The translations under genes and the position numbers were made by a program. DNA of 64,000 bases from Podarcis vaucheri. Its lineage: Eukaryota. Of the stretch, positions 1 through 57,000 are shown piece by piece (the stretch's first letter is position 1; every line of letters starts with the position of its first letter). The notes under the pieces were generated by a model. That model was not told where the DNA came from and did no database searches. It saw only the letters and a program-made list of their open reading frames with translations. The DNA lies in NCBI GenBank assembly GCA_965113315.1, contig OZ220368.1. One strand, given 5' to 3'.

Positions 1-86
1 AAGAATTTCAGCCTTACCTGCCCCGTTTTGTCACAGCAATCTGGAATTTATTAGTCACAACAGGGCAAGAAGTTAAATATGATTTG
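1..86 (+). CDS. CSE1L: CSE1L exon (5'-truncated by window): EFQPYLPRFVTAIWNLLVTTGQEVKYDL
   Basis: Translation match; donor GTAAGT at 87. Confidence 0.95.
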
Positions 87-3000
87 GTAAGTGACTCTCT
101 TCCATCCAGCTTGAAATAAATGAACCTTTTTTTAGGTGGTCTTCAGATTATGCTCATTTTGTGTTTTCCCCCCCTCAGTTGGTAAGTAATGCAATCCAGT
201 TTCTAGCTTCGGTTTGTGAGAGGCCCCATTATAAGCACCTGTTTGAAGACCAGAATACACTGACAAGTATTTGTGAAAAAGTCATTGTTCCCAACATGGA
301 ATTTAGAGGTAAATATTTCCTTTCTTTAAAATCTTGATTAAAATTTTCCAGGAAAGCAAAAATTGAGGTTTAACACTGAGGGCTTTAGAACTGGCACAGT
401 AGCCAAGTAATGGACTGTATTTGTGGCCATTTGCATTCAAGAGGTTTGCAGCATGGTTTTGAGAGGCATTTTCTGTTCTGCACTCTCAGAACTGCACTTC
501 CCTTTTATATATATGTAATATGTATGCCCGTCAGAGTTGGGGAACTTCTGTCACTCCAGCTGTTGTTGGACTGCAACTCCCACTATTTCTGACCATTGGT
601 CACGCTGGGCGGGGCTGATGGGAGTTGGGATTCCAGCAGTATCCAGAGGGGTACAGGTATCCCATCCCATCATGAGTGACTGAAGTAACTCATCAGTTTG
701 GAAGAGTTGAGTTCCTCATCCACCAGTGCTTCTAGCTCAGTTTAACCTGAGTGTAGTACACTGCTTTTACATTAATTGGATTTTCCCCTGTCTCTGTCAT
801 GAAGTGGGTTCATACATAATGCCAAAGAAAGTTTTTGTACTCCAGAAATGAATCTTTCAGTATCTCAAACTGATTTCCAGTCTTAGTTTGCTGGGCCAAG
901 TACAAACTATAATTTTGGCAGTTCAGATGAAATGGTAAATCGTAGTTCGCCTCAAATGATGAAAGAAGTCAGGGAATCATCATGTCTAAGGAGAGGCTGC
1001 TTCAAATCTTGTTGTTAAAGATTTGGCTTTATGTCTGAAGCAGCCTAACGGTTAAAATCCCCAGCTACTCCAAGCTATCCTTAATATTTTGTCATACAAA
1101 GATATACATTAGTTGTGATCAGGATCTAAAGAGCATCTCATACTAATGGTATCTTTTACTTTTTGCCTTTGAAGAGCAATGCTATACCATAAGCTGCTGC
1201 TTCTGGAAATCTCTCTGTTTCGAAACTAATTTGCTGTGCAGTATGGTGCAGGGTTGCTATTTAAAGGAGGAGTAAACACCATGCATGGCTTTATGAAAAT
1301 AGTTCCACAATGTAATTTGGACCCTGGCCTGAGTATTCTAGATAAGAACTTTATTTACTACTCTCATTTAAAATACTGATGGTACACGAACTCCCATTGC
1401 CTTGATCATGGTAACTTCATAAAATAAAGCCCAATAATAGGTGATTTAAATTTATTTACAAGCATATGTTATATTAAAATAAATGTAGTTTGTATATCAT
1501 GGCTGATCCTTTAAATGTTTGTGGACTGCTTTTCTGCAGCTGCTGATGAAGAAGCCTTTGAAGATAATTCTGAAGAATATATCAGAAGAGATTTGGAAGG
1601 ATCTGGTAAGCAGTTCTATACTGGGTGTATAATGGCGTTTGAGAACTGATGCAGTTTTCTGATGTGTTGACATGTGCATAAGTACATGCATTAATTGTCT
1701 TCCCTTGAATAGGTATGCAGTCGTAATAGGGTTAAAATACTTCTGCCCTTTGGGATTCAAATATGTAATGGTGTGGGTTTTTTGCGCTTGTCCTGTGATT
1801 CCATGGATGAGCACATTTGTTGGCTATTGGGGGTGGGGGTTCATCTGACAAGCCTTAAGGCAATTTTGCTTGCTTTAAGGGGTATTTGTTTTTGTCTTGC
1901 TTTTTAGTAGTTGCTGGTGTATTACTGCAACACTAGAAGGCCTAGCACTACATCAGATGAAATTGTTGTTGCACTTTATTTATCCAGTGCCTACAGCCTT
2001 CTCCTACTGAAAGCTCAGCCTCCACTCTTGAGTTACTCCAAACAGTTCTCTATGAAGTTCTTCTTTACCCCAGCCAGAATTTTCTTCTTGTAGCTTTTCA
2101 CACCCTCTCTTCTAATATATAGTCTGTTTCTATGGAGTACCAAAGAAGCAGATGCATTTGGGTTGAGTGCTTCACATACTTTTTACTCAGCAGTCTCAGT
2201 TACATATGTGCACACTTGGAATTTAAAACCCATTGAACTCTGGGACTGAGAGTTTCTTCTGAGCCTTTGAGGGGCACATGTTGCAGGGAGCAGTCATTTT
2301 TAGTGAACCATTTGTTCCCCTTGTGATCTTAAATTGCTGACTGTGTCAGGATTAGTTTTATAGGATCCTAAACTATCCTTTAAATAGTCCCAAAATTCTT
2401 CTGAATGTTATTTTACTTGTGTTTTGATGCTATGGCCCTGCAGTTTTTGCTTTCATTTATATTCATGAGAATCAATATTTTGGCAGATTTTGTAATTCTG
2501 CATTCCTTAATACCACTAGCATGCTTTTTATGAATAATAATAGAGAAGCCTATTTTAGCAAATTGCTCTGTCCCTGAAGCACAGCAGGGCGAATCCAATT
2601 TAGCCGTTTTGCAAGCAGAGCTTCAAAATGAAGAAACATTGTTTTAATATAACACATAATGCATCTTGTTTTTATCTCTGCCTTGCAGATATTGATACCA
2701 GACGCAGAGCAGCCTGTGATCTTGTAAGAGGGTTGTGCAAGTTTTTTGAAGGACCTGTTACTGGGATCTTTTCTGGTTACGTTAACTCTATGCTGCAAGA
2801 GTATGCAAAGAATCCATCTGTCAACTGGAAGCATAAAGATGCTGCTATTTACCTTGTAACATCTTTGGCATCGAAAGCTCAGACACAAAAGGTACTTGTT
2901 TGCATCACAGGGTACATAAGTTGAATACCCATCCAGACCCGTTTCCTTGGGGAGAAGAACCATTATTTAATAGTAAGCACTCCGTGGAAGAACCTTCTTC

Positions 3001-8983: not shown

Positions 8984-11900
8984 CATAAAAAAGAGGTTGG
9001 AGACCCTCTCCTGTGTTAGTAGATATCAGAAAGAATGAATTATCTTTTACTCACCTTGGAAATCCAAGTTGTTAATTCAAGTTAGCTTGTGAAGTTACAA
9101 AACTTTATTAGACTCTAATGGCTATCACTAAGGGAAAAATCTGCGCCAGACTGCGATCCTAGAAGGCAGAATTCAAAGATGCTATGCATATGCTTCATTG
9201 TAGAAAACGACACATTTTGAATGTATTATCTGGAGCAAGTTTCTTTTCATGTTGGAATGGATTCAGATTTGCCCCTCCACAAATGGAAATGCTGCTTTCA
9301 TTCAGAGAAGGAAATGAGATCCACCTGAGGCTCCCCTACAGCCCCCTGAGCCACTTTCATTATGTTTGGGAATGGAAGTTTTACTGACTTCAGATTTTTG
9401 CAGACTGAAGAGATTACTGGCTTTGTTTCCGTTTAGAATTCTCATAAAGATGCCAGCCCCCAAAAGCAGCCCTTCCAGTCTGTTGGAGAGTGCTGGTTTG
9501 CTCATGTCCTCTTATGGGCTTCCCATAGGGGTCTGGGTAGCCAATCAGGGAACAGAATGTGGGACTAGTTAGGTCTGATCCTGCAGGACTTAAATTCTTA
9601 ATCTGCACTTGATGCTAGGCATTTGTCACTTACAGAGAATGAATGGCTATATATTTTCCCTGTTGTTTCCAAGCCATGCAAGCTAGTTACATAAGCCATA
9701 AAATTATTAGATGAGCTGGATACTTCTTTCCCATGAAAGCAATACTTTTCAGTAGTGCATTCAATCTATCCTAGCACTGCTGAATACCCAGCTATGATCT
9801 GAAATTCCTGAATAATCTTAACTCAGTTTTTTACCCCATTGCTAGGCAAGTTTAACTAGGCAGAGTTAAATCAGTTCCCAGACTCATTGACTGTTGTGCT
9901 CTGGTAGTCAGTTACATCATAATTCCATTCTGGGTAGATTTTGTAGCTGCCAGATCATTTTACTGTTAATAATTTGCTGGCATCTGTCTGTCTTGAGGGA
10001 CAACAGAGGAGTGCACCTTTGGAGGTGAGGTCAAGCTGTTGGAACGTTGCAGCGCCTGCTGTGACTGTGGAGGCCGATGCAAAACTTTGTGTTTTCCTTA
10101 ATTTACAGCCTGGACTTTTGGGTGTGTTCCAGAAACTTATTGCCTCTAAACTTAATGACCATCAAGGATTCTACCTTCTCAACAGTATTATAGAACATAT
10201 GCCCCCGTGAGTATGAACATACCAAATTCAAGTAATTTTGCTGCTATTAGCTTGCATTATTGTAGATCTCCCATTGGATGTACTCAAAATATGCCAAAAG
10301 AAAGTTAAGAAATAGTACACTCAAATGGCCTACTGGATTGATTAACCTGTTTCAACGTATTTTTGTCTTTCTAGTGAATCCATTGATCAGTACAGGAAAC
10401 AAATTTTCATCCTGTTATTCCAAAGACTTCAGAATTCCAAAACAACAAAATTTATCAAAAGTAAGCTATTTGTTTTATGGCTGATAGATTTGGGGAAGAA
10501 CTCTGCCCTGAGGGGCTTAGTATGCTTTGGATCAGAACAATCATCACTTGTCTTTTGATTTGATTTCAAAGATGGCAATACAGTGGTATCTTGTGTTGCG
10601 TAACGTTCAGGTTACGTCCGTGGCAAACCCAGAAGTAGGTTTGCCACTCGCACGTGCGCACAAGCGGTTATGAAATTTTCGGGATACAGCCGGGACTCCG
10701 GAACGGATCCCATTCATAACCGAAGGTACCACTGTAAAGGGCATATTGGTCAGAGTAACAGGATTTGGAGGCAAAGAGAGGAATATTCATTGAAGCTTGA
10801 ACTTTGTACCTACTTAGTATAAGAGCTGGGTTGGTGGGGATTTGTGATGGAGTTGGTCCCTCTGCATAACAGCTTTGCCTGGTGGGTCCTAGAGACCCTG
10901 TGAAACCAGCAAAGAAGTTTTGTCGACTGATAGCAGGAAAGATACAGATGCTTATTCACTGTGATTTTATAGAAGAGAGAGACACATATTAATACTAAAA
11001 TTCCTTCCAGTAGCACCTTTAAGACCAACTAAGTTAGTTCTTGGTATGAGCTTTCGTGTGCATGCACACTTCTTCAGATAACTGAAGAAGTGTGCATGCA
11101 CACGAAAGCTCATACCAAGAACTAACTTAGTTGGTCTTTAAAGTGCTACTGGAAGGAATTTTTTTATTTTGACTATGGCAGACCAACACAGCTACCTATC
11201 TGTAACTGAAACATATTAATACTGTTATACGTGCTCTTTTACAGCTTCTGATTCATTCTTCTTCTTTTAATAGGTTTCTTAGTCTTTATCAACTTGTATT
11301 GTGTAAGATACGGAGCAATAGCACTTCAAGAAATATTTGACAGTATACAGCCAAAGTTAGTATCTTTTTCTTTTTTTTAGTTTTCTTTCTATTTCTTACT
11401 ATTACAATTCTATCCTGCCTTTCATCTCAGTTCTCCTGCTCCTCATTTTATTCTCACAACTACCCTTTGAAGTGGGTTAGGCTGGGAGGGGGTGAATGGC
11501 CCAAGGCCACCCAGTGAGCCTCATGGCCAAATGGGGATTTGAACCCTGGTATTCCGGGGGTCTAATCCAGCTCTGCAGCCACTGTACCACACTGACTGCA
11601 CCAGGCTATACTAGGGTTAACTGATAGCTGTATTTTCAGGTATCATTCTGTTTCCCAGGAAGAAGGCAGCGGAGCTGAAAGTGAATATGAAAATATATTA
11701 TTTGTTTGTTTATTTATTAAATTCATATCCCACCGTTCCTCCCAGCAAAGCCTAGGGCAGCAAAACCAATTGATCCCCTCACAAGTGGCTAGACTTCATA
11801 ATTAATTTGGTGTCATCTTGCAATAAAGTCCTGACAGTTATGTGCTTTAATTCAAGGTGGCAAACTGTAGAGGAAGAACCAGGAGCAATCACCCTTTTGA

Positions 11901-42000: not shown

Positions 42001-45000
42001 AGGTAGTTTGTGCCACCAAGATCCTGGATGTGCTGTGGAATTTTTATTTTACATTTTTTCCTTTTGAGAACAGATCCCCATGCCATGTCACAAACTGCTT
42101 CCAAAACTCCTTGGTGTCAAGGGAAGATTGCTAGGGATGGGTGGGTAAGGGGACGCTGCTGTTTTTGACAGTTGACAGCTCATGTAGACTTGCTGAAATG
42201 TGTGGGTCTTCAGTAAATCTCCCAACTCCTTGCCTTTCTCTAATGTCCCTGGCTCTGCTGCCATCTGTCCTCAACTATGGTTGCTCTTGCCTCTCCATAC
42301 CATGCTTTTTAGTCTTCCTTCCCAGCTTTGTTTTAAGCAGTTTCCGGGGTGGGGGGGAGAGGTCTTAGATAAGAACATGCAGCTTTAAGATACCAGGCAG
42401 CAACATCTCCTGTCTTCCCTTAATTTGGTTCACAGTAACACATTTTCTACTGATAGACATTGGATAAAAGCCTTATTCAAGTGTGCTTTATTGCATTTTG
42501 TTGCTTTTTATCTGTAGAATATGAGCTTTTACAACTCATATTGCCGGACAGTTGTGTAAGTCTCTGGGGAAATAGTGATATTTAATCAAGACAAAGAAAT
42601 CTAGAGAGCTATTTGTGGCTTTTGAGGTCTTTCAGAATCTTGGATGGAGTCCAGAGAGCTCCATGCATGTGCTTAATATGCCTCCATGCACTTGTAAAGG
42701 ATTTGTGTGTTTTTTTGTCCCCTTCCAGCTGCAGCCCCTTGCACTGCACCAGATGCTGCTATGGAGCTTTCTCTGACCTTCATAGTGACTTCTGAAGCAC
42801 ATAGGCTATGGCCTGGGGTGGTTGTTGGGGGCATGGATGCTGGAATGCTCCAGCTCACTTGAAGCCCAGGTGTAGATTTTGGATTTCTGCCATTGATTTT
42901 AATTCTCCAGAACTGCGAATTTGCAAACCGTGCCGCGGTACTATGCAAATAAGAAGAGGCTGGCAGTCAGATAAAAGACCAATGTGGGCAGCATGTGAGC
43001 TCTCAGTGAGGGGAAAAGGTGTTTATATTAAACCAAGCATGTGTAATGCAAGCTTTTGTAGTAATGATAGCCTTCAGTTTGAAGAACATCATGTCTTCTA
43101 TATTCTATGCATATAGTGCTAGGCTTTCCAGTCAAATGCCAATATTTAAATATCAGTTTGCAAATACAAATCAAGTTATATGCTGCAGCAAAAAAATCTA
43201 TTCACATGGCATTTGCATTAACACTTGGTTTCTGTAAAATAAGCATGCCTCCCCTGAACAAATTTAAATGACAAATTGCTTTCTGTCCCTATTTAATACA
43301 CATGACCTTCTCTTCCTACCACCCATCCCTTTGATGCTTCTCAAGTTTACTCCTAGCTATCAAGGGAATGAATGTCTGGGGCACAGTGTGGAATTCTCTC
43401 TGACCTCCACCTTTAACACTTGCTTTATCTTCTTCTCTTTAGATAGTGTAACCCCCACAGTGGAGCTGAATGCGCTTTGTATGAAGCTGGGAAAGAAACC
43501 AATGTACAAGCCTATAGATCCTTACACAGAGATGAGGTCCACTTACAACTACAGTATGAGAGGTGGTGCTTATCCCCCACGGTATGTCATGCTATTATTC
43601 ACTCTCCTGTAATGAAGTCCTCTGATCACACTCTTTCAAATTCACAATTTTGGTGCTTCTGAAGAATACTGCACTTGTCTTCCTAGTATAGTGATTCTCA
43701 GAATTATTTCTCTGGGCCACACTTTCAGAATAAAGATTTGCTTGTGCCATGCTGCACCTTTTTTTTTTTGATAAGAAATACATTGAAAAACAAAAAGGAA
43801 CAATTCCTACCAGTGCTTGACTTAGAACAGCAGAACACAAGTGCTTTATAGTATGATCACGTGACATCCAAAAAGCATTAAACAAGGCAGCTACATAAGA
43901 ACATGAATCATTCCCAAAATATAATTATAAATGAACCTCTTACATATGTACCTTAAGTACGTTTATGATCTTGCTTTTGCTGAGTAATCTCATTTATATT
44001 AGGTCTAATTTGAGAGAACCAAACTCTCATCTCGTCATCAACACAAAGAATCCTTTCTCTTTTCTAATCTTTTGTATTATGGCAGGCTTAATCATTTTGT
44101 CAGCTATTGTATGTGGTTTATTATTATTAATTAAATTTGTATACCACCCTTCGTCCGTAGATTACAGGGTGGTTTTGTCTGTTGAGCAGTCAATTCAGCC
44201 GTTTGGTAAGCTATAATTTGCATCTTATCTGAGACTTCTACTCCTTTTTCAAAACAAGATCATTGACATTTCTGCTGTTCCAAAAGCCTTTCAAAATATT
44301 GAAAATTCTTGTTTGCCAGATTTCCATGTTTGACAACAGATGTCTTCATCTTGTCTGGGGCCATATTGGAATGGGAAAAGCTTCCCACCACAGGAAACAC
44401 GTGGCTGAAGGACATTTTCCTCTCCATTCCATGTGAAATAAAGACTCAAAATAGCTATCCGCATATTGTCGACAAGCTTTCTTGTTTGGATGTTTGCTTG
44501 GGCCTGCTACCAGTGTCAAATTAAATGGGTCTTCTCTAGCACTCTGTTCGAACGGTGATTTTGGATCACAACTAGGATTGTCCTCAATATCACTTGATGC
44601 TTTTGATCTCATTTTGAAAATATATCTATCCATATCCTGCAAATTTAAATAAATAAATTGATACTCTACTCTACTACACTAAAATGTTAAAATATTTATT
44701 TGATGATTGTTATTGAACCTTCCTGCCACACTTGCCATCCTCTCCTGCTACGCAAGTCTGGCATGCCACACCCTTTGAGAAGCAGTGTCCTAGGACAAGC
44801 AGGTTTTATGCACGAGCTGCACAGACAGTTAAAAGGCAACCATTCAAAACATCTGGTTCCACAATACAGTCATACCTCGGGTTACAGGCGTTTCAGGTTG
44901 CGTTTTTTTGGGTTACGGACCGCTGAAACCCGGAAGTACCGGAACGGGTTACTTCCGGGTTTCGGTGGTTGTGCATGCACAGAAGCACCAAATCGCAACC

Positions 45001-48000
45001 CGTGCGTTCACAGACGCGCTGCTGCAGGTTGCAAACATGCATCCCGCATGGATCACGTTCTCAACCCAAGTGTCCACTGTAATGGCCAGCTATTGCTGCA
45101 CTGCAAAACCCCAAATCTGGATCACCAAAATAATACCACGGCCTTTCCAAGCTTAGCTATAGTGAAGAAGAAAAAATGGGTGATTCAGCTGCCCAAAGAT
45201 CCATGGTATCTGAAATAGGGGACACACCAGAGAAACGGCTGAGAGCCAAGATCCACTTAGAGGAGCAGAATTTTGCGAGAAGGAGGGGGTTGCACCCCTC
45301 AGCCTTTCTGAGCCACTACATTTGGTGTAGCGAATGGGAGTACGCCTGCTGCACACTATTGGAGAATGAGATGGTTGGCACTTTGCCCCCAAGCCAATTA
45401 AGCCACACTTCTACAGCCTCCTGGCAACAGCCTCAGTCTCCCTGATGAGGCTTCATAAACGCTTTTAGAACTCTTTATTTAAAGCACCCCATTCTCTTTG
45501 TTTCTCGATGCAAAGGGAAAACTGGTTTCATGCCGTCTTACCCTTTATTTATAAAACTCTTTACAAAATGTCAAGGTCATATACAGCAACGTATGCAGAT
45601 ACAACAAAATATAAAATACTATTGAAAAATAATAATTAAAATCACTGGCTCGGCTTAAGAAAACGTAAACAACCGAATAGGCCTGCTGGAATAAAAAGGT
45701 CTTCAAAGAACACTTGAAAACTAGCAGCAAAGGTGTATTCCGCAGAATGGGACTGGCAGCACTAAATCCTTGAATTCTGGTTGTAGCCGGTTGGACTGCT
45801 GAATAACTAACACCACTCCTGGATTATCTCTGTGATCAAGCTGAGATATAAGGGCTCAGGTTGTCCTTAAGCTATTATGGACCCAAGCTGTTGAAAGGAG
45901 CCATACACCTTTTTCTTATTTTTTGCTCCCAAATCTTTTCCTTTGCAGTGTGACAGACATCCCTGCAACCTCCTCCTCCAAAAAGCAACATCATTCCAAA
46001 ATTTGAAAACAAAAACTAGGAAGTGAAAATTGAAGGATGGTGGTCTGCATTTTTGGGGGGAAGATGGGGTCACACGACACTAAACAGCCAGTCTCCTTTT
46101 TCTTGTAGGTTCAGTTGGCCTAAATAAAGTGGGCAGAATTTATGGGCCTGAGCTTGTAACTTTTAAAAAAACAAATGTTCTATTGAATGTAGCCAAATAT
46201 ATTAATAGCTTAACTTGCTGGTTGAGTTCAGAAATGTTTAATCCGTGTTGGTTGCTTTGTGCTTCTGGCTTTAATGTTAATGCTTCTAGTCATGCAGTGT
46301 CTGCACTGTAAGTGCTGCAGTCAAACTTTTGAGGGCCAACAGTTGACGCATTGTGTTCAGTGCTGTTTCTCCACTTAACGCTTTATTTGAGCCCTGTCTG
46401 CTGGCAAGGATGACCTTGTACACCCCCCCTCCAGGCCTGAAATGTCAAGTCTTTCTCTTTTCAGGTACTTCTATCCATTTCCTGTGGGACCCTGGCTCTA
46501 CCAAGTGGAGCTCTCCATCGGGGGACAGCAGTTTCACGGGAAAGGAAGAACAAGACAGGCTGCTAAACATGACGCGGCTGCTAAAGCACTGAAAATCCTG
46601 CAAAATGAGCCCTTGCCTGAAAAACCGGAGGTAGTGTGTCTAAAACATAGTAGAAGTTAACTGTTTTGAAATTAGCTTTTTGGTTTGCCCCCAAATACTG
46701 TTGCTTTAATGTGTGAAGGCTTGCACTCACATGTTTTTCTGTCGCTTATGATAAGCCTGTCTGTGGCACTTGGTGGTTCCCCTATTTAGCCATAGTGAAC
46801 TGTGGTACCTCTCTGCTTGACAGCCCTGTCGCTAATGAAGTGTAAATGCATCAGTTACTCAAGTGCTAGCAAGGTAAAGAGGGAAGATATTTGCAGACTT
46901 TTGGCCTCCAAGGCTGCTATTCTTTCCTTCTCCGTTCCTTGCATTGCCCCAAGGCAGACCCAACCAGCCAGCTGCTCCTCACTGGTTTTAAGCATCTCAG
47001 CCTAGAGAATGTGTCACAGATACAGCAGGTCTCATAAAATGGTGCCTCGGTCATTGCGTGGCTTAACTATATTGCATTGTGAAAATTACAGCTTCAAAGT
47101 CAAGGCTTTGGGGTATATAAGTGGATATACCCAGAATTTGGAGCGAGGGTGGGAAATGAGCTCGATATTTGGATTTGGTAGTAAGTTTAAAAAACGAATT
47201 TGGGCCCCAGGTTATATTTAGTTCAGTTTAGAATAACGGAGAGTACACAATGGCATAACTCGAGGTAGATCTATAGTCAAGTCTGTGCTGGAGTTAAATT
47301 GATTTCAGATCAAGTCTTTGAGACACTGTAGAAATTGTGATTGGGAGACCAGTTTTCCCACAGAGTATATTTAAGTAGTACTGGAACAGCAACTGGAATT
47401 CTATAAATAGGTTCCACGCAGTGTTGGCTGCAGAACGTTATTGTTAAAGCTGTCACTACTTTGAAAATACAGCATAATTCTTTTCCGTAATCATCAGCAT
47501 CAGAACTGCATTGAAACTCCATATTCTGCCCTACCCATTACTTGGGTTACATGAAGAATAATATAGCCAGCTTGCAGCAGAAGCAGAACTGAATTACTGG
47601 CATCGTCTCATTTCGCAGATGCATCTGGGTGAACATTAAACTGCTTAATTTGGCATTGCCTTAGAAGTTGCCTGAAGTATTAACCTTAATACAGTTTACT
47701 TTGACCAGCATCAGTTCTTCAGGGGCTTGGATCAAGCAGCCTTCTGACACTGCTCTCTAAGGCCTTCTAAATTAGAGAGATCAAAATTTGGGACCTTCAT
47801 ACGTTCCATGTGCATAGACATTTCTTAAATAGTGTGTTGAGTTTTTTCTTCCTCTACCCCTTACATTATTTCCTGTTTACGGCAAAATAAAATGCTAAAC
47901 AACTGTTCTCTGCTTTAACTTCTCTTACATTCTCATTTGCTCCGCTAGCTAGCTCCAATTAACTTAATTTTGCATGATAGTTATTTGGAAAGATTATTGT

Positions 48001-51000
48001 ACTTGTGCTGTGTGTACCACTGCATGGCTGTTTTGCCCGGCCTCTAGAAGGGCGTGTGTATTTGCTTTCAACCTCAATATCCTCATCAGCATGCTCGTTA
48101 ATTGTTATGAATTATCTGAAGCATGTGTTCAGAGTTTCGTATATGCATGGCTTTATATCAGCCTAAATGTGATCGCTGCTTTATGAATGGAGCTTGTTTG
48201 AAGAATCAGATCATAAACTGGCACCATAAAAATGGCTCAGTCAGAACATTTGATTTCCTTGATCTTACAGCCTGACATTCTGTCATTATCTCCTCTGTAC
48301 TATAATTCCCCAGTTAATAAATAACTGAGCCACTAATTCTCCAAACTTGGGCTTATTTGGCAATGTTGCTTCAGTCCGTATATTTTTTAAATCCGTGGTA
48401 GTAAAATAAGTAGAAAAGAGATTCAAGGTCTTAGCTTGCATTGGAGAGTCTTTTTATAGATAGAAAGAAGTCCCATAACTTAAATGCTTAGCTTTTAAGG
48501 TGAAGCTTTAGAAACACTCCCCTCCCTGTGTTTGGCTTTCTAATACTGGAAGAGATGGGATGTGTTTTTGAGTAGGTGAAGAAAGACTCAACAAAACAAG
48601 ACGTCTTTGAGTGTAGAGAGGGGATTTTAATGAGCCTCTTGGTTTACATTTTTTATTGCCTGCTTAGATATAGATTGTCTATTTTACTGATCACTTACTT
48701 TTATATTACTTGTTTTACCTGTTTTAAAAATATGTTGATTCAGTGGGTATTTTCTTACGAATATTTTAAATTATTTATGTAATCCACTTAGTTTTCTGAT
48801 TAAGTGGTATATAAATCTTGATGAACAAATAAAACATTATTTTAGTTTTATTGATTTTCTTCGTCTTTAAGGATGTTTGTGTTTCTGCCTTGGGACCATT
48901 TGGTAAAACCTCAGAAATAAATAATGAAACACTAGTTTTCCAAAGTAACTCTCTCAATCACATTTGCTAATTCTTAGCATTCTTGGACTGTACCGTGTCT
49001 CTCTCTGTGTATAAAATGTCTGCTGAAACTTCCGTAGCTAGAGTGTGTGCTGATTATGATTTGTGTGACGTCTTGAGTGTGTCCTGCATAGCTTATTTTC
49101 CCTTCCCTTGGAGCACAATAATCTAAGTAGAAAAGGACATTCCACTGACTACTTAAATGCCAGAACTGTCATTCTGAAAGGCATAGCAGTTATTGGAAGC
49201 AAATACCATGCAGAAAACTCCCTGAGAGATTTGTTGTTGCAATAGAATATAGTATTTCTCCTCAAGCTAGGGAATGTCATATGCCTCCAGTCTTCACTGG
49301 GTGAATACTACAATTCAGCTCCAAAGGACTGCGTTAGGTATTTGTAAAGAGTTGGGTGCACCCAGTGGATTTAATTGCTGCTTCTTCCCTTTTAGTTGCA
49401 GCTCCTGTGCTAGACTGCAGACCACTTTTGAAAACTGACCTTTATAAAAGGAGCTTTCCATGTGGCGTTGGGTTGGGTAGGAAGTCTGCGGTTGGCAAAC
49501 CCAGGCACAATACTCCACTCAGGCACGCAGATATTCTCTGGGTTAATAATGGCCTGAAACTGGAAAAGCTGAAAATGGGAAAATAACATTGGGCTTGTAT
49601 TTTGAAAATGTATTTTATAAAGCTCTGAACTTTATTGCCAGTTTTTACAGGTTGCCTGCAAGTAATTTCATGTAGACACCAAAATTAACCTCTCCCATGC
49701 ATAATGTGCATCTTTCAGAACTGCTAGCTGTTTCCCCGTAGATTTTTCAGACAGGGGAATAACTCTGGAAAATCTCCTTGGCATGTCAGGCACTCGTGAT
49801 GAAAACTGTCCTTGAGCCTTCAGTTTAAACTGCTCCTGGGGGTTGAGTGGAGAAAATCATGTTTAATATTATGATACTAACCCTAGATACTGTGTGTGGC
49901 AGATTTGTTAGTGAGTCGGTGCAAAAGAAGCTTCTTCAATATCATTGTTCTTCTCTTAGATTAATGGCAGAGAACCAGATGATGAAAATCTCAATAAATC
50001 TGAAATAAGCCAAGTGTTTGAGATTGCACTTAAAAGGAACTTGCCTGTGAATTTTGAGGTAGGTTTAGTTAATTGCTCTAAAAGTGGTTTTACTTTAGAA
50101 TACTGAAGGTAGCACTACTTGGCAGGTGGGGGGAGATAATTTGGGGGGGAATACAGCTGGGCTTTAAAATCGTGTGTTAAAATATATCCTGATTCTCTTT
50201 CCATGGGTCCAGTAGTTTTGTTTCATAGCGGAAAGCCATTAAAAGGGGAATTATGAGAAGCTGTATGCTGGCAGCATTTAAATTCTTCCAATGTATTTGG
50301 AAGGAACGGCAGATGCCACTAATGTCATAAAATGTCGCAGATATATTTGCTTATGTGAGTGGGAGGGAGGGTGTCACTGATTTCCCCTTTGCTGCAGCCC
50401 CCACACTGTGTACCACCCCACTCCAAAGGTTCCTCCAGCCCTCAGAAGCCGATGTGCAGGTGCATGAGGGCTGCAGTGGAAAGGGACTTCATTGCAAGGG
50501 GAAGTCCATTCTTGGTAGTTGGATTCAGTGGGTAAGGCTATTGAAAGGATTAGAAGAATGGGCAAGTTGAATTATCCTGTTAGGAGAGTATAAATATCTA
50601 ATGTAATTTCTTTCTGTTTAAGAATGTACTGTCTTGCTGTTTGTTGTGTGTAGAGTGCAAGAAAAAAGAAAATTTATTCAGTACCAAATATGTCCCTTTG
50701 TTGCTTTATTATGAATTGATATTTGGATATTTGCTTAACGTTAAGCATGGATGCATGCCAAGGTTTATAGCCTTTTAATTTTTTTAAGTAAAAACTGCCA
50801 CAGACCTAAATATTTGTAGTTGGGACAAAACGTAGTGCCCCCAAAAGACTAACTTGGTACATACTGAATAAAATAAGACTTGCAAAGACTGTCTTTAGCA
50901 TGTAAAGTTTAGCTGGGTTTACATTTTTAACCTGCATGGGGTGGGGTAATGTACTGAGAGGCTTTTAAAATATAGCCACTTCCCACTTTATTAGGAATGT

Positions 51001-54000
51001 TGTTTAAATTAGCCTTGTTCTTCCCTAACCCCCCCCCCCAAATTGTAGTTTGTGAGTAAAGTGTGCTACAACCATTTTACCCTACCATTTTTAATAAATG
51101 TTTATCACGCTTTCACTCAGTTTTTCCCTCTGAAACAGGTGACCCGGGAGAGCGGTCCCCCTCATATGAAGAGCTTCGTAACGAAGGTATCTGTGGGAGA
51201 ATTCATGGGTGAGGGTGAAGGCAAGAGCAAGAAGATCTCAAAGAAGAACGCGGCCATAGCAGTCCTAGAGGAATTGAAGAAACTGCCCCCCCTTCCTACG
51301 GTTGAGAAAATGAAGCCGCGAATCAAAAAGAAAACAAAATCAATAGTCAAGGTGAGAGAAGTATGCGCTTGGCCAAACCTCAGCTGTTGTAAAAGGAAAT
51401 TCTTGATATGTTTAAGGAAGCTGTCTTGCACCATAGCAGACACCTCTGTCTGTGCCTGTAGTCATCGGAACTCTTTGTTCACTGTTGTTATGCCAAGCTA
51501 GTGGTGATTCTGTATCAGCAAGGAAGCACTTAACTTGTCTAAATGCCAGGACCTGTGCTGTGTGTTTGCTGCCATCTGTAATCCAAATGTTCTTGTGCAG
51601 ATGTTTTGGTGGAGGCTTGCATAGTAGGCATTCTTAGTGTATGAAGCATAGCATGCATGTTCAGCTTTCATGTAACAGCCTTGTGCAGAAATCAGGCATA
51701 GATTAATCTAATGAGCACAATTGGTGATGTAGTATATCATATCGCCTTTTTAAAAACAAACAAAAAAAAAGGTCCAGCACCATAGGGAGCATAGAGACAG
51801 TTCATTTGCACGTAAGTGGGTATCCCCCATCACCTGTGTTTCTAGACAACATGGACTGAAACCTCCAGAGACGCAAAAATTGTTTCAGTGTGATTTATTT
51901 CTGAAATAATTGTGATCATAACCTTATTACTGATGAACGCTGGAGGTTGTGATGCTGTAGATACCTTTCCCTGAGTCAGTTTGAGCTTCCTGTGTCTATG
52001 TACCATGTTTGCAGTTGATACTGGTTTGGTTTTGTTGTCTTCTTAAAGTGATTCAGAACAATTCTTCGCAACTGTGTCTGTAACTCTGCAACATGTACCA
52101 ATACTTCCTGAAAACCCAATAGCAAAGTTAACAGTTAAAAAACCACCAACCCAACACCACCCTATCTCCTGGAGTGTTTTCATGGGAATGTGATATATTG
52201 GAACTGCTCTTGCCAACTGTTGGCTGATTCTTGCTTTTTCTATCTAAGTTGCAGACAAGTCCCGAATACGGCCAAGGTATGAATCCCATTAGCAGACTGG
52301 CTCAAATACAGCAAGCGAAGAAAGAGAAGGAGCCAGAGTACATGCTCATCACAGAACGTGGACTTCCGAGGCGCAGGGAGTTCGTGATGCAGGTTTGTGT
52401 TGAGCTCAGCACTTTATCCAGGACAGGGCAGCCATGTAATTAATTGATTTATTTGAATTTATAAGCTGCTTTGGGCCACGAGGGCCCCTCCAAGCAAGAT
52501 TGCAATAAAACCACAATAGAATATCATAAAAAACCTCAAACAGTTCATATAAAAAATGCACGGCAGCAGTTTATCATGTATTAAATAATTGATCAAAGTT
52601 TCTCGGCCTGGCAGAGCAATATTTAAGGTGCTGCAAAGACATCTTTTACAATCGAGTGAGCCGGCTGAATTTCCTTGGGAAATAGAACGTAGGTGGTACC
52701 ACCAAATGAAACTCCTATTTTTTGGTTAGAGGGTAATCTTAATGCATATTGCTTTGGGTGCTACTGCCATCTATCTGGTAGATCTTAACACAGAAAGGGA
52801 GTGGGATGGGCATATATGTGGGAGCAGATGCACTTTTAAATATCACAGACCGAGTACTTCAAAGGTTTAAAATCAGCATAGATAGTGAATTGAATCCAGA
52901 AGCACACCTGGTAAATAATAATAATTTAATAATAATTTATTATTTATACCCCACCCATCTGGCTGAGTTTCCCCAGTGATGTTTTACCCACAATGATATT
53001 CATAGAAAATGGATGTCATGTTATCTCTGTGGGGAGAACCACACAAGATGTGGGACCAGATGACAGTTTCTGAACTATTCAAGGGAAGCCCCATGTAAAA
53101 TGCACTGCAGAAGCCAAGAGGCTATCACAAATGAGAGCCTTGCATTAGACAACCAACCTATGCTATGCAGAATGTACTTAGTCCTGGTCTAATTTCAACA
53201 CAGTGTATTACTATGGTGCTCACATAATTTCCTCCTTGCATCTGTTGCTGACCGAAAGCTACTGTTGCTTCTAGAAGCCGCTGCAGCAGAGCATGCTCAC
53301 TCTTTCTCTTTCCCCCAGCCAGCCCCTGTGATGCAGCTGTCTAGTGGTAGTGATAGGAGGAAGGGAAGAGTTCTCCATGGCCAGCCAGCAGCTTGCTTCG
53401 TCTGGTTTTTGCTGTCTTTATGTCATGGGGAACTTTTTTATTGGTGTGACAGCAGTACGGGATGATTTGAGTTCTATTTTCTCTTGCTGGGAGTGCATTG
53501 TCTTTGTGTCCCAATGTCTTATGGAGGTGAAGATAAGCAGGAAATAGCTGATGACTTCTTCCCTTGGCTACCGTAGGTTCATTTGACACTCCATCCCTAT
53601 CATGTCACCATACATTATTATATTCCATATTCCTCCTTAGCCCCCACTTGCTACCCCTTCTCCTTCTGCTGGCACAGTCCTCTGTTCTCTCCCTGGTTTG
53701 GATTTTCATATTCTTCAAGGTTCATAATTAGATCGGTGTGCTGTAATTTTAAAGTAGAATTCTGGGAAGCCTTGTCTGCTAGTCCATTCTCATAGAATCC
53801 TTTGGAAGCTCTGTGCTTTGTAAATGCAGAAACTACTTAGATGAGCAGCATGTTGCAATAGCAACGGGGAGCTGTTACAGGGGCTGAAGAACGTTGAGAT
53901 CATTGCAAAGCACAAAATCGATTGCCACATGCATACTAATAGATTTCTAATCATGTTATCTTGATACTATACTCTGGACACTTCCAGAATCCAAACTTAT

Positions 54001-57000
54001 TTGGGGCGTTAAAACAAAAATAAAAGCCAGGGGGAAAGTCTTGGGGCATGAATTGCCTGCTTTGTGTGTCAGAGCCTGCAGTCAGTGGCATGGAGGCCCC
54101 ATAACTTGGCTATCCTCCAAGGCCATATTTGGACAGATACGTTACTAATGATCATCGGCGTTTAGTTTCCCCTTCCTACATAAAGAGATACTTGTTCTAA
54201 TAATCCATTTCTCCATACTTCTAGGTGAAAGTTGGCATGCACACAGCTGAAGGAATGGGAACTAACAAGAAGGTAGCAAAGCGTAATGCAGCTGAAAACA
54301 TGCTGGAGCTCTTAGGATTCAAAGTCCCTCAACCACAACCCCCAAAGCCAGCACTAAAAACAGAAGAAAAGGTAAGACATCTTAAATGATGGGCTGTGCA
54401 AGTTCAGATGGGGACTTGTGTGCTGAAGATTATCCAGACTGTAAAATTCACAGGTGTGGGGTTGTTGTCCTGGGGCCGACAGGGTGGTTGTAAACTGGGT
54501 CATTTAGACCAGGCATGTCCAATGGGTAGATCACTGCCATTTTTTTAAATAGTGGGAGTAGATCACAGTCTCTTGGGAGTTGGACGTGTCTGATTTAGGC
54601 AACTTCAGTTTCTTGACTCGGTTGTAGGCATGATCTTGCTTACCTTATAAAATCCATTTTTTTCTGTGTCAATAATACGTGCTGAATCCCAAATATAGTC
54701 CTTTATTAAGGTCCTGCATTTCTTGCAATTCTATAGCGTGCATTGTTACCGAAACGAGTCTAAACCAGTGTTTCCCAAACTTGGGTCTCCAGCTGTTTTT
54801 GGACTACAACTCCCATCACCCCTAGCTAGCAGGGCCAGTGGCCAATGATGATGGGAATTATAGTCCAAAAACAGCTGGAGACCCAAGTTTGGGAAACACT
54901 GGTCTAAAAGCTTAAGGTCAATGTGTAAGAAGCATCATAAGGAGAGAGAAACCATGAGCAGTGCACTTTCGTTTGCCGTACTGTGTGGCTTTTATTACCT
55001 TATTAAGACGCTTTGAACAGTGAGGTTGTTATTGTAGCATCTTAGCCCCCTGTCGTTGTACAGATGGACTAGTGCATATCCGCTATGGATATGGACACAT
55101 TTCAGCAGGCCCCTTGGAGTGAAACAAAATGCTTGCGCCAACATTGCTGATGACCTAGTGTTCCATCAGGTGGCAATGAGGGCAAGTCTCATCTCTTAGG
55201 TTCAGAGGGATGGCCCTGGTTTGTTGATTTTTGCTTTTGGGGTGGTGTAAGAACAAAGTGGTGTAGCCTTTGTTTAGAAAGGTTGTTAGAAACGCTCAAC
55301 TCTTCAGCGCAGTGGCATAACAACTCCAAATAACTCTCTTTTGTGCTAGACGCCAGTAAAGAAGCCAGGTGATGGAAGAAAAGTAACGTTTTTTGAGCCT
55401 GGCTCTGAAGAAACATCTGCTAGTAAGTGACCTTCATTTCATTCTTCTTTTACTTTATTTTATTGGTATGATGGCTGTACCACAGCAGATGACATTCCGT
55501 GATTTCAAGAATTGAAGGTCAGTTAGGGCATACTATTTGGTTGATAGTTACTAGGCATTAAATAGGTATAATGGGTCACCCAGGTAGACCAGGGGACACT
55601 AGGGCTTGGCGATATCTGGTTTTCAACAGTGTGATGTTTCAGCAGCTAAACATCACAATATACCAATATATCACGATGTCCGAAATAAGTATGGAGCTAT
55701 TTAGAGTCATTGGCTGGTTTCAGTTTTTCCTGCATCGTGATTTTTGCCGGCACCTGCTCTTGTGATTCGCTGCCCCCTCCCTGCATGAGGCAGGGGGAGA
55801 ACTGAAATGGCAGAGTTAACAGGGCTGCAGGAATCGAGAGAAGCTTTGGGTGGCTTTATAGTTTTCCCCACCTTGTGATTTTTGCATAGCATGCACACGC
55901 ATCTGTGAAAATAAGTTTGCTGGCCCAATAATATAAAGTAAATAAGGGTTTGACCATTTGTTTATTTCCCAAGGCATATTTCCAGAGCAATGCATGCGCA
56001 AAGGGTGATGCAAGATTATTATTATTTTTAACCCACTCTGATAAAACTAAAATACTGATTTATTTATTTTTCTATTTGGAAAAGACTTTCAAAGTTTCGG
56101 CTCATATCAGGCATTGCTTGGGACATTAGACTTATTTTTTGCAAAGTGCTTTGGGAAAAGCCATGTGAAATCATTATCAGAATAAAACACATTAGACCCA
56201 GAAGGAATGTTACCATCTTGCTGAAGGCCAGGATGGGGCTTGCATTTCAGAAGCTATTTTGGATTTTGTGCTCTGTGATCTGCCATTTTGTGTATGACCA
56301 GACCCTTGCCAATTAATGAAACTTTTTTTGTTTGTTCTGTCTCGTTACTAGGTAATAAAGAGGATGAGTTCAGGATGCCTTATCTCAGCCATCAGCAGCT
56401 TCCTGCTGGCATTCTTCCCATGGTCCCTGAGGTTGCACAGGCTGTAGGAGTTAATCAAGGACACCACACCAAAGAGTTCAACAGGGCAGCCCCCAATCCT
56501 GCCATGGCTACTGTGACAGCTATGATTGCTAGAGAGCTATTATACGGTGGCACTTCTCCTACCGCTGAGACCATTTTAAAAAACAGCTCCTCGGGCCATG
56601 TCCCCCACGGACCTCTCACTAGACCTTCCGAACAGTTGGACTACCTTTCCGGTGTTCAGGGAATCCAGGTAAATTGGTTGCAAGCGGCGTAATTCAAGGT
56701 GTCTCTTCATAGGATTTGACTTGCTCAATAAAAACCTTGTTTCACAAAACCACCAATTCATGCATGTCAGCCTTCTGCCTAAGACAGAAAGTTTCCTATG
56801 TTTTTGGAGTTATTGTTGAAAACCAATATGTTACATTTTTAAAAATGGAACGTTTCCCAGCTAGTATGCAACTTGAAGGCTGTTCCTATGGGTTTTTTGA
56901 GCGTTGTCTTTTTTCTCACTCAACAAAAACATAGCCCTGTCCATCAGACACTGCACTTAAATAACTTCTGTTCATCTCTGTATGGCTTGCACCAGAGCCT

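Follow-up and report, generated by a model that had tools for sequence, protein, structure and literature searches.

An inverted pair of 5'-end copies of a Neptune-type Penelope-like element in a CSE1L intron of Podarcis vaucheri, probably joined from two cDNAs

The insertion in the CSE1L intron

The window, which is the whole 64-kb stretch of Podarcis vaucheri contig OZ220368.1 that was analysed and to which all plain positions refer, carries on its + strand the gene CSE1L, recognised by matches to the Pfam family CAS_CSE1 (PF03378) on five of five exon translations. The intron considered here (10461-11273, GT..AG, with the splice dinucleotides read off the sequence and PF03378 found on the translations of the flanking exons) is followed by an exon at 11274-11355, likewise read off the sequence. 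Within it lies an insert of 214 nt (10997-11210), made of an 81-bp inverted repeat around a 4-nt junction, followed by 48 unpaired bases, and enclosed by a 13-bp target site duplication (TSD), in which 10984-10996 is identical to 11211-11223 on the + strand. Between the paired arms (10997-11077 and 11082-11162) there are two mismatches in 81 positions, neither of them within a ribozyme motif. In alignment with the parent element (locus L123, described below), the left arm (10997-11080, - strand) is an inverted, tail-less copy of element positions +5 to +88, and the right arm (11082-11208, + strand) covers +8 to +134, that is, 5' UTR and ORF start. Its tail of 33 nt (11175-11207, + strand) matches the first 11 codons of the parental RT-endonuclease ORF, aligning to the ORF start at L123:4382. 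The head-to-head junction (11078-11081) consists of left-arm positions +5..+7 plus an A at 11081 that is absent from the parent.

The insertion is young. Three of three related organisms have the empty site, with contigs that run from 10983 straight into 11211 and a single copy of the 13-bp target sequence, and the window copy has 3 differences from the family majority. An earlier note on this DNA, made from its letters, had placed a young, Penelope-derived insertion with a 13-bp TSD in a CSE1L intron, and each of these points was borne out, the Penelope origin by sister copies that lead to an ORF with RT and GIY-YIG domains (L123). A contig of the run nearest to the window opens with 17 unaligned letters ahead of 11211 (aligned part 11211-11329), as an empty allele would give; this is a hint that the insertion may be heterozygous in the species.

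Close matches to nearly all of the 214 nt, at 94-98%, were found at 39 other loci of the 40 scored, all chosen through the query itself, and reversed-pattern controls had no matches, so the insert is not a product of chance. These matches, together with the recurrence of a few junctions, are what would be expected if a master locus gave rise to complete copies of the fold-back as a SINE-, MITE- or retrozyme-like non-autonomous unit. Such an origin is extremely unlikely, given that near-full-length matches are what the query selected, and that the copies are unlike one another in junction letters, arm lengths and asymmetry and grade continuously into long ORF-bearing arms; the variation in junctions and arm lengths largely refutes a SINE or MITE unit of this kind. 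The CSE1L-intron locus is ordinary, one among hundreds alike, and no special explanation of it is needed.

Some features of the surroundings may be recorded here. The right TSD ends 50 nt ahead of the next CSE1L exon (spacer 11224-11273), which places the end of the hairpin near the likely branch point, and the hairpin is a candidate for A-to-I editing or altered splicing. Two further repeats lie nearby, at 10579-10736 and 11434-11595, one with 19-nt terminal inverted repeats and one a high-depth SINE-like piece. Downstream of CSE1L, at about 43268-56692, the translations of ORF pieces resemble exons of what we take to be STAU1, which encodes a double-stranded RNA binding protein.

The parent element and its sister copies

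The parent locus L123 is a partial tandem (99.8%) with an intact ORF (L123:4382-7114) of 910 aa, on which Pfam places a reverse transcriptase (RVT_1, E=3e-12) and, at the C terminus, a GIY-YIG endonuclease (E=3e-5). A C-X4-C-X2-C linker occurs at residue 770, between RT and endonuclease, and a DKG motif at 316; the Pfam matches of the ORF include neither a tRNA primer nor an RNase H or integrase domain. Six of the seven GIY-YIG matches in the genome run into this repeat, and longer sister copies extend upstream into the GIY-YIG domain. By its ORF layout, as read from sequence, the parent is an endonuclease-bearing Penelope-like element (PLE) of Neptune type. The order within the repeat is ORF 3' end, TATA box (starting at -30), Inr-like TCAGT, hammerhead (+4 to +41, cut after +37), 5' UTR and ATG at +101, where +1 is the A of TCAGT (L123:4282). 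The window insert would be two copies of the start of this transcription unit, likely the first ~130 bases of the mRNA, and not a random 3' fragment.

This layout is in line with what is described for Neptune-clade endonuclease-bearing PLEs, namely a single ORF with RT, a CX2-5CxxC linker and a GIY-YIG domain at the C terminus, partial tandem pLTRs with TATA/Inr-like motifs, an inverted 5'-truncated copy, a TSD, and a tail of 30-40 bp on one end (here 33 nt) that corresponds to the ORF start (PMC8557442, PMC3846280). The linker is also present in Nematis (PMC8557442). The family differs in that its dominant product is a ~130-nt piece between the putative transcription start site (TSS) and the RT starts, without the ORF body; in their accessible parts, the Neptune descriptions cover the inverted ends, but neither the TSS boundary nor the cap-like G discussed below (PMC8557442, PMC3846280). 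The upstream TATA box is a within-class difference from the D. virilis Penelope, for which a TATA-less internal promoter is described (PMC2377424).

The abundance of the element along its length was followed with exact matches of 22- to 26-mers, which give lower bounds, the tail pattern being longer and containing a CpG. Genome-wide counts are 148 at +140..161, 6,964 at +97..122, 14,108 at +38..59, 12,939 at +8..29, 3,786 at -15..+7 and 3,010 at -49..-28. There are cliffs at the tail end and at the TSS and none at the ribozyme cut, across which the counts hardly fall. About 14,000 arms of this element are present in the genome, and at 289 loci both cores are intact with a junction of at most 9 nt.

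An unselected sample was formed by the first 100 tail matches on one contig (C1), of which 98 are independent and 90 anchorable; L145 and L146, which have duplicated flanks, were left out of the inversion, tail-end and TSD tallies and kept in those of the 151 arm starts and of shared variants. The 3' ends of the copies fall at +130..+134 in 66 of the 98 independent copies, and by +140 in all 98, and a TSD of 11-17 bp accompanies 64 of them. On average the tail end and the TSD have 2.1 nt in common (58 copies), where the null gives 0.68 (at most 1.12 in 2000 runs); priming on the target would be expected to leave such an overlap. An adjacent inverted arm is present in 50 of the 90 anchored copies, with its outer end at +83..+100 in 46 of the 50; non-inverted copies such as L123 likewise have their plain 3' end at +95..+100. 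At the other end, 64 of the 151 arms from the 100 copies start at +1..+7, including 25 at +2 and 19 at +4, and roughly a quarter to a third of arms continue seamlessly upstream of +1. An apparent pile-up of ends at -105/-109 proved to be an artefact of a small duplication in the reference L123.

Hammerhead motifs and traces of cleavage

Each arm of the window copy carries a minimal type I hammerhead motif. On the + strand, which is the sense strand of CSE1L, it spans 11082-11115 and reads CTGAAGA (11082-11088), A (11089), stem II (11090-11103), GAAA (11104-11107), AGCT (11107-11110) and C (11111), with the cut predicted after 11111 and the 5' strand of stem I lost at the junction. The mirror motif on the - strand, antisense to CSE1L, spans 11044-11080, with its core starting at 11077, C17 at 11048, the cut predicted after 11048 and a stem I of 3 bp. 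The coordinates of the + core given in the earlier note all matched on checking, and the - strand core, its predicted cut and the 81-bp fold-back were found as it had described. Its recognition of a minimal type I hammerhead with a palindromic stem III agrees with the description of metazoan PLE min-HHRs by Cervera and De la Pena (2014; PMC4209133), with which both arms share the CUGANGA/GAAA/UH core, a long helix II, the extra base at 9-10.1, G10.1-C11.1 and the palindromic 15.2-16.2; the 4-bp helix I of that description is found here in the parent. Motifs on opposite strands were already noted there, with pairs 100-700 bp apart on record (PMC4209133). An Rfam scan, which the earlier note had proposed as a check, returned no hammerhead model at E<=10, its best hits being sub-threshold generic miRNA-hairpin models and other chance matches. 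The columns of the core are near-invariant across family copies, yet so are the next 34 columns: owing to the youth of the family, the core does not exceed its surroundings in uniformity. Searches of the same genome for variants of stem II found 9 and 2 matches, which showed no covariation.

The two motifs of the window are real but predicted to be inactive. Stem I, of 4 bp in the parent, retains 3 bp on the - arm and 2 of 4 possible pairs on the + arm, where the pair adjoining the cut is missing; a helix I of 4-5 bp closing the cut site is absent from both arms, and in this they differ from the PLE min-HHR (PMC4209133). In the folding model, adopting the hammerhead fold costs 1.3-1.6 kcal/mol relative to the ensemble in the parent 5' end, 3.9-4.5 in the single arms of the window and ~59 in the whole insert. 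An unconstrained cofold of two 48-nt sense arms is predicted to pair through the stem II palindrome and not as a double hammerhead. The earlier note was right on the reduced stem I and, according to the model, on a fold-back that out-competes the ribozyme by ~59 kcal/mol.

Copy ends at the ribozyme cut were sought among the sister copies. Only one of the 151 arms from the 100 unselected copies starts at +38. As for RNA 3' ends, among 100 of 107 matches listed, 16 loci reach at least +36, of which 2 end at +37, compared with 3 each at +39, +41 and +45; most others inspected among these listed matches are short snap-backs. As far as genomic copies tell, this family bears no trace of the role in cleavage and circularisation that has been proposed for the min-HHR (PMC4209133). 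This is in accord with the anole Poseidon element, for which the main template was uncleaved RNA (PMC11167929). The parent ribozyme may still cleave, the cleaved RNA perhaps simply going uncopied.

The note had also proposed that silencing of the ribozyme by the fold-back explains why an essential gene tolerates it, in which case an active cassette would be kept quiet and selection would favour inverted copies in genes. The ~59 kcal/mol predicted for the whole insert, against 1.3-1.6 in the parent 5' end, fits this proposal, as does the reported depletion of tandem retrozymes from Xenopus introns, although 42-44% of retrozymes are still intronic in the same report (10.64898/2026.07.22.740005). 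We consider it very unlikely and do not uphold the claim. Inversion is a routine by-product, seen in over half of the unselected copies (50/90) wherever they lie, and little selection need be invoked because the insertion is young. Even without the hairpin, the CSE1L transcript would have no dimer partner in cis, because it contains only one sense core, the + one with the broken stem I, the insert, with one sense core on each strand, being the single copy within the 64-kb window. In vitro, no cleavage was observed for a lone min-HHR, and for dimers and trimers cleavage was low (PMC4209133). Copy ends do not pile up at the ribozyme cut.

The insertion resembles non-LTR retrozymes, as far as these are described, in being short, non-coding, hammerhead-bearing and PLE-related (PMC7229834; 10.64898/2026.07.22.740005). 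Retrozymes are, however, tandem units bounded by ribozyme cuts, whereas here a dispersed inverted pair is bounded by the TSS and RT starts, and tandem sense units each with a hammerhead are absent from the CSE1L-intron insertion. Elsewhere, one tandem array (L213:1089-2140, in the region of G000:C26:3052777) has a 315-bp unit (-74 to +242) with several sense hammerheads in a row, and its limits do not fall at the ribozyme cut. Pieces of the 5' end with repeated junctions form small tandem arrays at L212:1172-1547 and at G000:C19:85413456, C27:27967808 and C26:11185230, with periods of about 130, 38, 47 and 46 nt, which suggests that the RNA 5' end was copied reiteratively, or that the pieces were duplicated later.

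The 5' boundary and the origin of the inverted arms

The 5' boundary of the copies is abrupt. Sister copies stop at +1 to +4, 30-33 nt behind the TATA box, and where the ORF start is present (40 loci, 38 picked in the order of the list and 2 chosen arrays), 25 loci show an ORF fragment that ends between +162 and +1005 and passes directly into a new unit starting at -2 to +8. The ends from which these joints depart, read as RNA 3' ends onto which the RT jumped, cluster at ORF +162 to +203 (17/25) and +304/305 (3/25), one carrying an oligo-T run, hinting at early termination or a protein-protected fragment. A genome-wide pattern search at ORF positions +180..+192 gave 49 joints, tallied from the listing, overlapping the 40-locus set and including one tandem pair; 28 of them restart at +4, and 20 of the 28 are preceded by a G. 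This G is untemplated, given that the genome has T at +3 and the donor stretch lacks G at that place. At one joint, seven T precede the G, like an oligo-U tail. Arms that start at +2 have a T in front in 22 of 25 cases (counted by eye), in place of the parental A at +1; this T may reflect an A added to the cDNA without template.

An untemplated G at a transcript start copies the cap. For a LINE, such a G has been read as marking the start of the transcript (PMC3510499). From the DNA junctions, we infer that transcription starts at +1 to +4 and that the RNA is capped. The G could be copied from the cap or result from plain terminal C addition by the RT; either way it marks RT run-off from a template. 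The boundary might also be a 3' splice site, or a stall of the RT at the ribozyme fold. A pyrimidine tract and CAG ahead of +3 would suit splicing, and the intron of D. virilis Penelope is described as ending at the 5' side of helix I (PMC4209133). A start at +3 is seen in just 3 of the 151 arms, without any constant exon joined upstream, and both the untemplated G and the distance from the TATA box are in keeping with a capped start; the splice-site reading was rejected on the starts, the missing constant exon and the cap-like G, and with the stall included we regard this alternative as most improbable.

The arms of one copy are related to each other, sharing 19 variants where 2.2 are expected (maximum 9 in 2000 shuffles), with 56 variants unshared, and a two-site subfamily marker is concordant between arms in 6 of 6 copies. 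Such sharing would follow if a cDNA, or an antisense RNA as proposed for rotifer Penelope, folded back and copied itself, the endonuclease then trimming the hairpin to leave one arm with a tail and one without; self-priming has been proposed from palindromic junctions (PMC3846280), and snap-backs within the stem II palindrome are indeed seen at 21 of 30 inspected junctions. These snap-backs, however, are a few nt long. Of 50 copies, 26 have an inverted arm that extends further 5' than the tail arm (by 89-270 nt in 7 of these), 18 have one that falls short of it and in 6 the two are equal, so that often neither arm is a copy of the other; in the 26, the tail-less arm has 5' sequence missing from the tail arm, and neither contains the other. 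The turn-around point, moreover, coincides with the sense TATA/Inr start and carries the cap-like G, and the +95..+100 end recurs as the plain 3' end of non-inverted copies (L123). Self-priming is in our view an unlikely source of the arms. The shared variants could alternatively reflect conversion between arms after insertion.

The insert is probably a by-product of Neptune-type integration, in which two cDNAs are primed on both target strands at two internal sites of the 5' region, run off the likely capped and uncleaved 5' end of the RNA and are joined head to head. A capped mRNA would start at +1 to +4 behind the TATA box in the pLTR, so that the hammerhead would be the first thing in the mRNA. 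The enzyme would cut the two target strands about 12-13 nt apart, and the RT would be primed at ~+133 and ~+95 with 1-4 nt of target-RNA pairing. Each RT would copy back until it reached the RNA 5' end, where it would often put an extra C opposite the cap. If it then jumped to the 3' end of an RNA, long or tandem copies would result; otherwise the two cDNA ends would be joined, with small deletions or losses and short templated snap-back insertions. In the window copy, the left arm would come from a cDNA for which the top target strand served as primer, near the +95 start site, and the right, tail-bearing arm from one primed by the bottom strand; one cDNA would have stopped at +5 plus one extra A and the other at +8 before the ends were joined. 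The arms that run seamlessly upstream of +1 count against run-off, as they would need a homologous jump or a read-through or circular template.

A precedent in vitro exists for several of these steps. The Poseidon protein of Anolis carolinensis (Frangieh et al. 2024), modelled as a dimer, cuts and extends both strands and starts reverse transcription at two internal sites that bound the tail, as putatively in Podarcis, where the steps are read from DNA; uncleaved RNA is its main template and ribozyme cleavage, which needed the protein, is not required (PMC11167929). Poseidon belongs to a clade other than that of the Neptune-type family of Podarcis, and its ORF starts inside the hammerhead, against 63 nt past the cut here (PMC11167929). 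In its accessible parts, that study calls the later steps of PLE integration unvalidated and does not treat inverted products, the TSS or template jumps (PMC11167929).

Two better-known systems offer partial parallels, and their comparison with this family draws on the Pfam matches of the ORF and the anatomy of the copies. In LINE-1 twin priming, a 5' inversion results when the other target strand primes a second cDNA, and the two cDNAs copy different parts of the RNA. Second-strand priming would be alike here, but both cDNAs would copy the same part. In the strong-stop transfer of LTR elements, synthesis begins near the RNA 5' end and the short cDNA can be extended only after a jump. The need for a jump of a short 5' cDNA would be alike, without the tRNA primer, RNase H or integrase domain that are missing from the Pfam matches. 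In the open-access literature, no account was found that joins Penelope with twin priming, a pLTR strong-stop or cap-G junctions, a weak negative, as most subscription papers fall outside that scope.

It is quite possible, if not quite probable, that PLEs integrate in general by symmetric double priming, in which a dimer primes both strands near the 5' end of the capped mRNA and inverted or tandem pLTRs arise from end-joining or end-to-end jumps of the run-off cDNAs, with no part for antisense self-priming or ribozyme-made circles. If this is true, the thousands of mini-insertions of this family would be a genomic record of a strong-stop-like step.

Telomerase has its sister group in the Penelope-like elements. 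Published work already describes their inverted ends, their tails and hammerhead pairs on opposite strands; what is new is the mechanistic evidence from sister copies at the level of a family, drawn from DNA only. The family-level pattern bears on how PLEs make inverted and tandem ends and on what the hammerhead is for, questions for which the published models invoke antisense self-priming (PMC3846280) or ribozyme cleavage and circular RNA (PMC4209133). From this young family come predictions exact to the base (transcripts beginning at +1/+4, reverse transcription initiated at ~+95 and ~+133, a cap-like G at jumps and the +37 cut unused), and since these come with an intact natural ORF, the competing models are directly distinguishable. 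The pattern further suggests that thousands of perfect hairpins of 80-100 bp enter the transcripts of the host.
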